Notes under the pieces: generated by a model
What the model saw: only the letters and a program-made list of their open reading frames with translations
What the model was told of the DNA's origin: nothing
The model's database searches: none
Position numbers and translations under genes: made by a program
Part shown: positions 10,276 through 58,404 of the stretch, one piece after another
How positions within the stretch are numbered: position 1 is the stretch's first letter
Layout of the letters: each line of letters begins with the position of its first letter
DNA from: a virus
DNA: 64,000 nucleotides
Virus record (IMG/VR): IMGVR_UViG_3300020185_000016
Reading direction: 5' to 3' (one strand)

Positions 10276-10303
10276 TGGTATGGGTGGTGTGATTCGACCC
10301 CAC
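10276..10303 (-). pseudogene. 3' tRNA remnant (T-arm, acceptor strand, CCA)
   Basis: GTGGG-GTCGAAT-CACAC-CACCCAT-A-CCA; no 5' half. Confidence 0.5.
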
Positions 10304-10313
10304 ATTATTCTTT

Positions 10314-11339: not shown

Positions 11340-11430
11340 CTTGTTTTTCAATAGCTCTATTTACAATCCCAATATTCTACGAACAGCCACAGGATCATCG
11401 GTCATAATGCTGCCACCGTCATTCATCTGC
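11340..11430. repeat. 91-bp direct repeat, copy at 11340
   Basis: 89/91 identical to 11605..11695 by manual alignment. Confidence 0.9.
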
Positions 11431-11604
11431 TTCCCAATACCTACAATAAAAGTGTTTGCCACACGCATCAATCTCTGCTTGTGGATAACCTTGTTCCAAC
11501 AGCCAAGGAATAATACTCTCATCTTCGAGGAAGTCTGCTGGCAAGGGCTTAGGAAACCCATACTTCCATCCGCTGGGCGGATCACACATCAATAGTTTCG
11601 ACAT
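11419..11604 (-). CDS. Small hypothetical protein bounded by the 91-bp repeats
   Basis: MSKLLMCDPPSGWKYGFPKP; ATG abuts one repeat copy, stop lies inside the other. Confidence 0.7.
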   Translation of the reverse strand: MSKLLMCDPPSGWKYGFPKPLPADFLEDESIIPWLLEQGYPQAEIDACGKHFYCRYWEADE

Positions 11605-11695
11605 CTTGTTTTTCAATAGCTCTATTTACAATCCCAATATTCTACGAACAGCCACAGGATCATCAGTCATAATGCTGCCACCGTCATTCATATGC
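11605..11695. repeat. 91-bp direct repeat, copy at 11605
   Basis: Contains 3' end of gene 11626..11832. Confidence 0.9.
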
Positions 11696-12326: not shown

Positions 12327-12386
12327 TGGAGTCAAGCCAGGGAATCGAACCCACTTACCCATTTTTATCTCTTACACAATACTTTA
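12327..12386 (-). pseudogene. Degenerate tRNA remnant
   Basis: GGG-TTCGATT-CCC..GCTTGAC-T-CCA; GTATTGTGTAA matches the tRNA-Gly D-arm start; no anticodon arm. Confidence 0.45.
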
Positions 12387-12465: not shown

Positions 12466-12493
12466 ATCAAAAAATATTTTATCTTATAATAAT

Positions 12494-12522
12494 ATAATAA
12501 CACATTTAAAATGGAAAGTAAA
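12494..12522 (-). promoter_or_regulatory. Early promoter of tRNA cluster
   Basis: TTTACT-N17-TATTAT. Confidence 0.75.
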
Positions 12523-12634
12523 CTGTTATTTGCAATTTATTTAAATAAAAATTTTATAATATACACCCACAAATTAAACAATTTTGCGCTAGATTAATTT
12601 GCGGATGTACTCTATTATTTTAATATAGATGAAA

Positions 12635-12907
12635 TTATGCAATTGCTTCTTTATAAGAAACAAGATTTTCCCAGCGAAATGAACGCCATCCTTCAGCTTT
12701 AACATCATAAACAGCCAAAATATCTGGATTAGATTTTTTAGATTTCTTTTCAATATGCTCTTCAACATCAATTTGTTGTGGAAGCAAATCTTCTTTGAGC
12801 GTACAGGTCATTATACGCGTATCACCATTTACTTTAGTAAATGTAATTTCAAACAAACCGCTGTGGAGCGCTTGTTTTAATTCATCTCTATTGATAGTGT
12901 CAATCAT
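12635..12907 (-). CDS. SH3/WYL-like small protein of T4-like phages
   Basis: ITFTKVNGDTRIMTCTL..VYDV..EGWRSFR. Confidence 0.75.
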   Translation of the reverse strand: MIDTINRDELKQALHSGLFEITFTKVNGDTRIMTCTLKEDLLPQQIDVEEHIEKKSKKSNPDILAVYDVKAEGWRSFRWENLVSYKEAIA

Positions 12908-46889: not shown

Positions 46890-47060
46890 TTATGCTACAC
46901 CACTTACTACATCTACTGCATATTGAACTTCTTGTTGAAATTCAGTTTCGGTAGCTTCAGAAAAATCAAAACCGGAATACTCCATTTCATCTTGAATGAG
47001 CCGCGCAAAAGCTTGATTACAATCAAGGATAGACATGATTTGTTTTGTATAATAATTCAT
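46890..47060 (-). CDS. Small acidic early protein (56 aa)
   Basis: Hand-translated MNYYTKQIMSILDC... Confidence 0.6.
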   Translation of the reverse strand: MNYYTKQIMSILDCNQAFARLIQDEMEYSGFDFSEATETEFQQEVQYAVDVVSGVA

Positions 47061-47098
47061 AATGATTCTTCCCTTTGCTTCATTTCATTGTATATACA

Positions 47099-47127
47099 TT
47101 TATAACATAAAAGAAAGAAAATGTACA
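47099..47127 (-). promoter_or_regulatory. Early promoter
   Basis: TGTACA-N17-TATAAA. Confidence 0.75.
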
Positions 47128-47155
47128 CACTTTTTTTACTTTTTTATCTTCGTTT

Positions 47156-47313
47156 GAAACTATTTTATACATACGCCCGAGCTAGTATCTCCAATCTCCC
47201 CGCACGGCCTTATTGACATTGCCGCTCTGGTTCGATCGAAACTAACATCCCTTTCGAGATAGTGCTTTTAGCTGATCAACGCCTCTACACAGACGTATGT
47301 ATGAAATAGTTTT
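47156..47313 (-). ncRNA. Putative structured ncRNA, domain B
   Basis: Closing stem of about 22 bp (47156-47178 with 47291-47313), internal GAAA-loop hairpin. Confidence 0.65.
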
Positions 47314-47323
47314 CCTTGTCTTA

Positions 47324-47445
47324 GACTCTTTGCTGATTATATAGTGGTCTTAACTTAGTCCCTTACCAGGATTTTACGGGTTCTGCTCCATGGGCATACC
47401 TACCTTTACGGTTCTTCGCTCGTACTATATAATCAGAAAAGAGTC
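47324..47445 (-). ncRNA. Putative structured ncRNA, domain A
   Basis: 21/22-bp inverted repeat (47324-47345 with 47424-47445). Confidence 0.65.
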
Positions 47446-47461
47446 CTTTGTTTTAGTTTCC

Positions 47462-47668
47462 TTATGCGAAGTGGTTATCAACAAGCACACTAATGCAATC
47501 ATTCAGATACTCAGTATCATAGAAGACTCCAAGTGGAATAAAGATATCAGACTCAACAAAGTTCCAATTGATACCGCCACCTTCGTGGATATTTTCTGGA
47601 TTAACCACCGCAGCATTGAAAGCTTCGATAATGTCATTCTTAATCATTGCGCCATAAGTAGTAAGCAT
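47462..47668 (-). CDS. Early protein of the INW family (paralog of 59885..60175)
   Basis: IKND..EAFN.A....EN......INW.FVE.D shared. Confidence 0.75.
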   Translation of the reverse strand: MLTTYGAMIKNDIIEAFNAAVVNPENIHEGGGINWNFVESDIFIPLGVFYDTEYLNDCISVLVDNHFA

Positions 47669-47692
47669 AGTGTTTCCCCTTTTGATATATTA

Positions 47693-47721
47693 GTTATATC
47701 ATATTAAGATCTGATTGTAAA
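47693..47721 (-). promoter_or_regulatory. Early promoter (duplicated unit)
   Basis: TTTACA-N17-TATAAC; about 65 bp nearly identical to 48107..48175. Confidence 0.85.
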
Positions 47722-47748
47722 CCCCTAAAATGCATTTTTTTTATTTTT

Positions 47749-47914: not shown

Positions 47915-48097
47915 TTAAGCTCCATCATCCATTTCTAATTCATATTCAATAAACTCTGCTTCTACCTTGCAGTCAGGATATTCCCGGTCAAGATACCGAA
48001 GCTCTTCAGAAGTTGCATAACCAGAGTATTCTTCTCCTGTATGAACAATTTCCCCAGCTTTGTTAGTAACTGTGAGTTTATAAAATCTTTTCCACAT
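47915..48097 (-). CDS. Hypothetical early protein
   Basis: GGAG RBS. Confidence 0.65.
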   Translation of the reverse strand: MWKRFYKLTVTNKAGEIVHTGEEYSGYATSEELRYLDREYPDCKVEAEFIEYELEMDDGA

Positions 48098-48121
48098 TGT
48101 GTATCTCCTTTTGATATATTA

Positions 48122-48150
48122 GTTATACCATGTAGAGATCTGATTGTAAA
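48122..48150 (-). promoter_or_regulatory. Early promoter
   Basis: TTTACA-N17-TATAAC. Confidence 0.85.
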
Positions 48151-48189
48151 CCCCTAAAGTGCATTTTTTTATTTAATGTGATATATTTG

Positions 48190-58314: not shown

Positions 58315-58404
58315 ATCAAAAACACTTGAAACTTCTCCATAGCATCAGGTAGCTAAATCCTTATCTACTTCATCGAATATAGGTCGTCACCTATCAAGTG
58401 CTTA

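Follow-up and report, generated by a model that had tools for sequence, protein, structure and literature searches.

Two candidate families of small structured phage RNAs with long closing helices and self-complementary loops

What is a phage doing with 290 nucleotides that fold into two closed domains and carry no evident gene? The stretch lies at positions 47156-47445 of a viral sequence of 64,000 nt, which was analysed as a whole and which we call the window. It is flanked by a 68-aa ORF (47668-47462) and a 56-aa ORF (47060-46890), and almost all genes of the window are on the minus strand. A sequence-only reading had described the stretch as noncoding and richer in GC than its surroundings, and both properties are borne out. 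GC content is 0.41-0.47 at 47175-47474 compared to 0.23-0.37 in the flanks, and no minus-strand ORF within 47173-47424 reaches 25 aa. The folding energy of the minus strand is -95.7 kcal/mol (z = -6.1, equalled by 0 of 100 shuffles), and the fold consists of two hairpin-closed domains, which we call modules A and B. Among all long-range inverted repeats of the window, the arms of their closing stems take the first two places.

The locus is laid out as follows.

47693..47722, minus strand: early-type promoter-like site, from which the 68-aa ORF (47668-47462), A and B would be transcribed in turn
47324..47445, minus strand: module A, a 122-nt structured RNA (family model R1, 121.5 bits, E = 2e-25)
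47157..47312, minus strand: module B, a 156-nt structured RNA (family model R2, 167 bits, E = 3e-36)
47099..47127, minus strand: promoter-like TGTACA-17-TATAAA with TG, for the next gene (47060-46890), read from the sequence

The early promoter had been proposed before, and a count of its pattern agrees with it: GTTTACA-N-TATAAC, found here at 47722-47693 (minus strand), has three matches in the window where 0.11 are expected. No terminator-like site was found on the minus strand between B and the promoter at 47127-47099. The promoter region itself is part of a repeated unit. A 76-nt cassette of promoter plus leader (47666-47741) recurs with 89% identity at 48095-48170, before successive small early genes, and resembles the promoter-early stem-loop cassettes in the hyperplastic regions of T4-type phages. 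The phage is probably a pelagimyophage or Melnitz-like T4-type myovirus, because the genome is AT-rich and has T4-like early promoters, tRNAs and an alpha-type two-piece tmRNA (PMC9004378 was our source for the features of these phages).

Module A is present once in the window according to a search with R1. Its parts, in the order of transcription, are:

47424..47445, minus strand: 5' arm of the closing helix P1, a 22-nt, 95% complementary inverted repeat with 47324-47345
47397..47405, minus strand: invariant AGGUAGGUA, whose GGU pairs with the ACC of GAACCC (47372-47383)
47384..47396, minus strand: apical hairpin UGC-CCAUGGA-GCA with the self-complementary word CCAUGG at 47388-47393
47359..47371, minus strand: hairpin UCCU-GGUAA-GGGA with a GNRA-type loop, kept in 25 of 25 homologs (columns 86-95)
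47324..47345, minus strand: 3' arm of P1, which in homologs often bears AAGGAG plus AUG

The inverted repeat seen earlier around this domain (47324-47345 with 47424-47445) is the closing helix, and the twin GAACC(C)GUAAA words and the UCCU-GGUAA-GGGA hairpin reported with it are also there. Across homologs the core is a clamp of invariant AGGUAGGUA ... GAACCC that surrounds a variable hairpin, followed by the (G)GNRA hairpin; the GGU/ACC pairing of the clamp (columns 53-55 with 75-77) never varies. A likeness of AGUACGAG in A to the sarcin-ricin loop was considered and rejected, since the word is not conserved among A homologs.

Module B is likewise present as a single copy in the window (R2 search). 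Its parts are:

47292..47312, minus strand: 5' arm of P1, in a 19-nt, 95% inverted repeat (helix 1, 20 pairs)
47262..47291, minus strand: helix P2 (GUGU/GCAC) around a hairpin with the loop word UGAUCA (47273-47278)
47247..47260, minus strand: optional hairpin P3, AUCUC-GAAA-GGGAU, in which 5 of 5 pairs of helix 4 covary
47182..47245, minus strand: invariant core, a long-range helix UUAGUUUCGAUC / GAUUGGAGAUACUAG around GCGGC-AAUGUCAAUAAG-GCCGU (helices 5-8)
47157..47178, minus strand: 3' arm of P1, from the inverted repeat and the alignment

Here, too, the closing stem stands as first read, with arms at 47157-47175 and 47294-47312 (19 nt, 95% complementary), and so do AUCUC-GAAA-GGGAU and GCGGC/GCCGU. 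P3 is missing in some homologs and about 40 nt longer in others. The core of the alignment is a long-range helix UUAGUUUC.. / ..GGAGAUACUAG around GCGGC-AAYGUCAAUAAG-GCCGU, and about 50 of its columns are invariant over 64 homologs. An alternative pairing of UAUCUC with GAGAUA had also been suggested. It is not supported: in homologs without the AUCUC hairpin the invariant GAGAUA pairs with UUAGUUUC.

Some B copies depart from this plan. In two variants (L172:4290-4370, plus strand, and L041:13466-13674, plus strand) the GCGGC...GCCGU hairpin or the P3 insert is replaced, and the replacement hairpins carry other palindromic loops (UACGCGUA; GCGGACG-GGCC-CGUCCGC). In L054:480-734 (minus strand) and in L059, two B copies stand in tandem, the more divergent second copy beginning a few bases after the first.

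How widespread are the modules, and do they belong together? A collection of homologs, as the earlier reading had advised, shows that copies of each module turn up in contigs of uncultured phages from marine and estuarine waters. An 18-mer from A matched 22 IMG/VR contigs, and relatives of the neighbouring ORF led to syntenic loci with B and without A. Degenerate patterns in IMG/VR then gave 27 A stretches and 112 B stretches (the latter with a 17-base pattern), and a metagenome scan gave 44 further A stretches; the few chance matches to the patterns were discarded by eye. With nhmmer, 67 A and 112 B matches were found in the 176 fetched loci. Only the window and L172, a 148-kb contig that is its closest relative, contain both. 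After removal of redundancy 36 A and 72 B copies remain, 108 in total. Four large phage contigs (183-342 kb, 77-100% complete) each have exactly one A or one B. Hence the tandem arrangement is real in the window, where A stands beside B, but the idea that they are two domains of one RNA is not: they are unrelated families that are mostly found singly.

Neither family matches any in Rfam 15, whose models include 6S, GOLLD, ROOL, riboswitches, self-cleaving ribozymes and Y RNA. At gathering threshold, Rfam 15 reports just six tRNAs and the tmRNA in the whole window; at E <= 10 it reports nothing inside A or B for the region 46900-47700, and at E <= 1 nothing for the homologous locus L081. This also counts against the suggestion of a 6S-like polymerase mimic, for which there is no Rfam match at E <= 10 and no 6S-type central bubble in the consensus folds. 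The folds of A and B have multi-helix cores under a continuous helix of about 20 bp, in contrast to the 6S rod of about 180 nt with its large bubble. The 3-kb region and each module were compared with 50,697 GenBank phage records by near and distant BLAST; A and B have no match in this set, which may omit the window's own or near-identical records. The nearest virus record compared (G001) is without the region. All copies come from viral or metagenomic contigs. Among 185,579 cellular genomes (species representatives) the B pattern has 0 matches, and the sole match of the A pattern was rejected as chance, lying in unrelated sequence with no tRNA near. By their sequences and predicted folds, A and B are thus two new structured RNA families, in a comparison with Rfam 15, these phage records and these cellular genomes; a catalogue of viral structured RNAs (Fremin 2023) has a further 10,006 unnamed candidates, which may include A or B.

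Is the fold itself maintained? The B alignment (MAFFT, 64 distinct sequences) has 98.8% of its cells paired, compared to 92.1% when shuffled, and compensatory changes in 24 of 50 pairs. For the 25 distinct sequences of A the values are 94.8% and 75.8%, with compensatory changes in 24 of 32 pairs. The closing helices contribute much of this: both sides have changed in 19 of the 21 consensus pairs of P1 in A and in 11 of the 20 pairs of P1 in B. None of 500 shuffles reaches the observed covariation score, and sliding the partner by 1-3 columns reduces pairing to about 40%. The alignments show that each module is a conserved core under a predicted closing helix of about 20-21 bp, and that this architecture is maintained by compensatory change. 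The check for covariation that had been called for is thereby answered with 24 such pairs in each module, and the description as a tandem of two structured minus-strand noncoding RNAs downstream of an early-type promoter is supported.

It had been asked whether the repeats might instead be features of the DNA, a replication origin or the scar of a transposon; a recombination hot spot and a repeat of the MITE or REP type are further readings of this kind. The inverted repeats are long, and the plus strand also folds better than its shuffles (z = -4.3). The pairs tell against it. At three B positions, 59-64 of the 64 sequences have a G.U pair, which on the other strand would be an A.C mismatch; the fold is thus selected on the transcribed strand, at the RNA level. 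Furthermore, the modules are co-oriented with the flanking tRNA or gene in every case, there is a single copy per genome, and one loop word of A (GCUGGC) pairs with itself through G.U alone. A MITE or REP-type repeat was rejected because each module is present singly in the window, the 183-342 kb contigs have one copy each, and the arms covary and are not conserved. Covariation through G.U on one strand, together with the presence of the locus in metatranscriptomes, favours RNA, and a DNA-level element has hardly any probability left.

If the modules are RNAs, do they serve the phage, or do they merely persist in it? Their presence is patchy even among close relatives. L026 has an ORF that is 87% identical to the 68-aa ORF and no module downstream; L027, L028, L030 and L032 have B only; the window has A and B. 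Since L026 is without a module, the RNAs seem to be dispensable in some phages. Such a pattern is what one would expect of selfish, insertion-tolerant elements, comparable to the intervening sequences that RNase III excises from 23S rRNA. Such elements would survive only at places where their excision does no harm, and the phage would gain nothing from them. Other observations fit as well. Distances between B cores follow those of the neighbouring protein only weakly (Mantel r = 0.21, reached by 149 of 2000 permutations), A has been inserted into a tmRNA loop (see below), and the region is a mosaic with repeated promoter cassettes. However, selfish elements would not be expected to stay at one copy per 183-342 kb contig or to keep about 50 unpaired core positions invariant over 64 homologs. 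We also see no mobility gene, target duplication or conserved terminal repeats (the stem arms covary), and in L172 one promoter is dedicated to A, B and a tRNA array. We therefore hold purely selfish elements to be rather improbable.

Where the modules sit in other phages is more informative. In 22 of the 108 non-redundant copies, the end lies 1-5 nt ahead of a tRNA gene in the same orientation (Trp, Asn, Pro or Thr). Another 40 have an ORF just downstream, with AAGGAG in or beside the 3' arm of P1. Others have a promoter, a terminator or a further module next to them on the 3' side. L172 agrees with the window in its tRNA set and its permuted tmRNA; there, A begins within about 15 nt of a TTGACA-N17-TATATT promoter, and a B variant follows, with tRNA-Trp-Pro-Arg-Met-Gly-Leu 2 nt further on. 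In L037 and L196 the tmRNA is a permuted, two-piece one, and A fills its intervening loop, between ...CAGCUCCACCA (the CCA end) and GGGGCUG.... Placed like this, P1 would stack on the acceptor stem and the module would be removed when the two pieces mature. These positions show that the modules sit at RNA-processing sites: on the 5' side of a tRNA, at the head of a tRNA array, or in the excised loop of a permuted tmRNA. The window is an exception: its modules have no tRNA nearer than 35 kb.

The copies in front of ORFs suggest a different role, that of cis-acting leaders, either riboswitch-like or activated by processing, in which the stem hides a ribosome-binding site and the core senses a ligand or protein on which translation of the gene depends. 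Besides the AAGGAG in the stem of these 40 copies, it speaks for leaders that 27 of the 40 ORFs belong to one family of 68 aa starting MRTVHY, and that this gene occurs somewhere in 85 of 175 module loci. As a general explanation the leader is unlikely. The other copies precede a tRNA, promoter, terminator, another module or the tmRNA body; in the window B follows A, a promoter follows B, and no MRTVHY gene was found. With about 20 bp, the stem is too stable to be switched by a ligand, and the same gene is preceded by two unrelated cores. The class of riboswitches was rejected for the same heterogeneity of downstream partners (tRNA, tmRNA, promoter, terminator and several ORF families).

The small protein that accompanies the modules is a phage family of its own. 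MRTVHYVG...VWDAS (68 aa; L062:411-614, plus strand, and about 45 other loci) has no match in Pfam or PHROG and no lead in the ESM Atlas. Its AlphaFold model is a small alpha/beta fold (pLDDT 72) without a fold match in the PDB at E <= 0.001.

A role in transcription rather than translation can also be imagined. The modules could be cis-acting processive antiterminators like the put RNA of HK022: they would modify the very polymerase that makes them and let it read into the tRNA array and the downstream early genes. Copies do lie soon after sigma-70-type promoters and before long operons, and no terminator separates the modules from the genes downstream. Such an RNA would have no need for a two-turn closing stem, and neither its self-complementary loops nor the copies in the tmRNA loop would be explained. 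Nor is there a likeness to put or any other Rfam family. We give antitermination little probability.

Several related or neighbouring elements were noted along the way. A third structured element lies directly 5' of A or B at L081:9945-10085 (plus strand) and in about 15 other loci. It has AGGUAGGUA ... GAAACCC as in module A, the loop word GGUACC, a covarying hairpin CUACU..AGUAG or UGCAU..AUGCA, and a GGGAGGG / CCCUCCC hairpin with CUGCAG in the loop. There is no Rfam match for it, and it is probably a further member of the same set of modules. The spacer of the window's own permuted tmRNA (58315-58402, minus strand, about 90 nt) is closed by a 9-bp stem AGCACUUGA / UCAAGUGUU that stacks on the acceptor stem. 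This spacer is not module A (R1 search of the window); it contains UAGCUA and the word GUAGAUAAGG, which it has in common with the third, upstream element.

Within the tRNA region of the window, two fragments at 12327-12362 and 10283-10312 (both minus strand) resemble 3' halves of tRNAs, with a GGTTCGATTCC-type T arm and an acceptor-like end. They lie between intact tRNAs and look like remnants of lost ones. The same region contains a direct repeat of about 90 nt (11340-11430 and 11600-11695, minus strand), formed by the end of a small ORF plus downstream sequence. An inverted repeat at 12471-12669, beside tRNA-Arg, was considered as a possible third module and rejected, since it is made up of an ORF end, a hairpin and a promoter.

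What do two unrelated cores have in common besides the closing helix? Both expose a self-complementary word in a loop. In A the variable hairpin typically has a 3-bp stem and a 7-nt loop, composed of a 6-nt palindrome and an A. The word is CCAUGG in the window and GCUAGC, GCCGGC, ACUAGU, UCGCGA or CCUAGG in homologs. GCUGGC, which self-pairs only with the help of G.U, is a single-step intermediate between GCUAGC and GCCGGC. Three variants have perfect palindromes of 12 nt; the exceptions are one variant with a non-palindromic loop (ACAU) and one without the hairpin. In B, the loop after GAGG always contains a self-complementary tetranucleotide (GAUC, GGCC, CCGG or GUAC, or with a wobble GGCU or UCGG), so that columns 40-43 are self-complementary, and columns 40 and 43 paired, in 64 of 64 sequences.

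Shuffling each sequence separately does not bring this out (p of about 0.2 each), as the composition of the hairpins is itself self-complementary; counts over pairs of columns are the better test. The adjacent columns 62/63 of A read UA in 12 sequences, AU in 3, CG in 3 and UG in 2, and columns 60/68 read GC in 13, AU in 4, CG in 3 and UG in 1. The adjacent columns 41/42 of B read GC in 35, AU in 18, CG in 7 and UA in 4. Neighbouring nucleotides are unable to pair within one molecule, and their covariation therefore points to pairing between two copies. Judged by this sequence pattern, A and B would form kissing-loop homodimers. The kissing loops of OLE and GOLLD were argued in the same way, from GGCC changing to GAUC or AGCU, and were then confirmed by cryo-EM (Kretsch et al., Nature 2025).

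Is the locus found in RNA? Two marine metatranscriptomes cover the whole of it, with a summed contig depth of 72-134 over B compared to 34-48 in the flanks. Two libraries from other studies cover mainly 47153-47310, in several sequence variants. All or part of 299 nt is present in RNA libraries from about seven studies, including 30-Mb runs, in the form of assembled contigs of public libraries, from which ends, strand and discrete species cannot be read. Read-through mRNA or contaminating DNA could also be the source of these contigs.

To explain all of this, we propose that A and B are cut out as stable phage RNAs which dimerise with themselves and are a small-scale counterpart of ROOL, GOLLD and the T4 RNAs C and D; in this explanation we have somewhat more belief than doubt. 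The cis-acting leader, the selfish insert, the put-like antiterminator and the DNA-level element all rank below it. The modules would be transcribed inside early or stable-RNA operons; in the window the transcript would start at the promoter at 47722 and pass through the 68-aa ORF into A and B. The closing helix would be a processing stalk for RNase III. Its two-turn length is the same in two unrelated families; an RNA excised by RNase III is expected to have a flanking helix of about two turns, 20 bp or more, and P1 has 21 pairs in A and 20 in B. With a tRNA or tmRNA downstream, the 3' side would be cut by RNase P; with a gene downstream, cleavage would unmask the Shine-Dalgarno sequence hidden in the helix. 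As no tRNA comes after the modules in the window, processing here would depend on the closing stem alone. The predicted products are discrete species of about 120 and 160 nt. Once released, they would associate into symmetric homodimers by loop-loop kissing, and the homodimers, working in trans as an RNA particle, would bind some factor of the host or of the phage. A trans-acting particle of this kind would resemble OLE, ROOL and GOLLD, RNAs of phages or bacteria with their habit of occurring at tRNA islands and no function known.

A bolder version is possible and correspondingly tentative: we doubt it more than we believe it. In this version A, B and the third upstream module are interchangeable mini-ornate RNAs, which would be excised from early transcripts or from tRNA/tmRNA precursors and become symmetric RNA-only homodimers that act on host translation or RNA surveillance, for instance by decoying a tRNA-directed defence nuclease or a factor associated with the ribosome. 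If true, no smaller natural RNAs would have evolutionary evidence of obligate homodimerisation, and ROOL and GOLLD, an unexplained class, would gain a model that is easy to handle.

The preferred explanation, an excised and dimerising RNA, has counterparts in known systems. In rRNA operons, around the 23S rRNA intervening sequences and at the early RNase III sites of T7, the sequences on either side of an RNA pair into a helix of about 20 bp, the RNase III stalk. Cutting such a stalk sets free the RNA inside it and can expose the ribosome-binding site of the gene that follows. RNase III stalks elsewhere enclose rRNA or nothing conserved, whereas the stems of A and B, for which cleavage is predicted, enclose small and highly conserved cores. 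For the loops, the dimerisation initiation site of HIV-1 is a parallel: a 6-nt palindrome in a hairpin loop drives homodimerisation. The phage phi29 has a packaging RNA of about 120 nt that possesses a long terminal helix and assembles by loop-loop pairing. This RNA differs in that two different complementary loops close a ring, it belongs to phi29-type podoviruses, and it has no homology to A or B.

Closer in habitat are RNAs C and D of T4 (species 1 and 2, rnaC and rnaD), small stable RNAs in the tRNA cluster of a T4-type phage that are released by the enzymes of tRNA processing. They have been known since the 1970s, and their function is as unexplained as that of ROOL and GOLLD. When the sequences of rnaC and rnaD were folded and compared with A and B, no similarity in sequence or fold was found. 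RNA C ends in a tRNA-like T arm and acceptor, unlike A and B, and the T4 RNAs come after tRNA-Arg, on its 3' side, while the place of A and B is before tRNAs, on the 5' side.

A and B share the traits of the structured RNAs of phage tRNA islands: they are phage-encoded and noncoding, their structure is maintained, and they recur beside tRNAs. They are thus new members of this group, widespread in abundant marine phages. They also have what marks homo-oligomeric kissing-loop RNAs at the level of alignments, a covarying self-complementary word that includes adjacent nucleotides. With A and B occupying the same slots interchangeably, one of them inserted into a tmRNA loop, a ribosome-binding site hidden in the stem, and loops that covary, there are now several handles on the function and the biogenesis of the class, and the two alignments with their strong covariation are ready as RNA family models.

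ROOL (RF03087) and GOLLD (RF01998) are themselves phage-encoded, often next to tRNA islands, and so far without a function; they assemble into homo-oligomers by kissing loops, and the palindromic words of these loops covary (Kretsch et al., Nature 2025). The covariation of palindromic loops is the same in ROOL, GOLLD and OLE as in A and B, and the tRNA-island habitat is common to A, B, ROOL and GOLLD. ROOL and GOLLD measure 500-800 nt or more, and 8 to 14 copies make up a cage. A and B have 120-160 nt, a two-turn stem, no Rfam similarity to either, and one self-complementary loop each, from which a dimer is expected. At this size they lend themselves to easy synthesis, mutagenesis, native-gel tests of dimerisation and structure determination.
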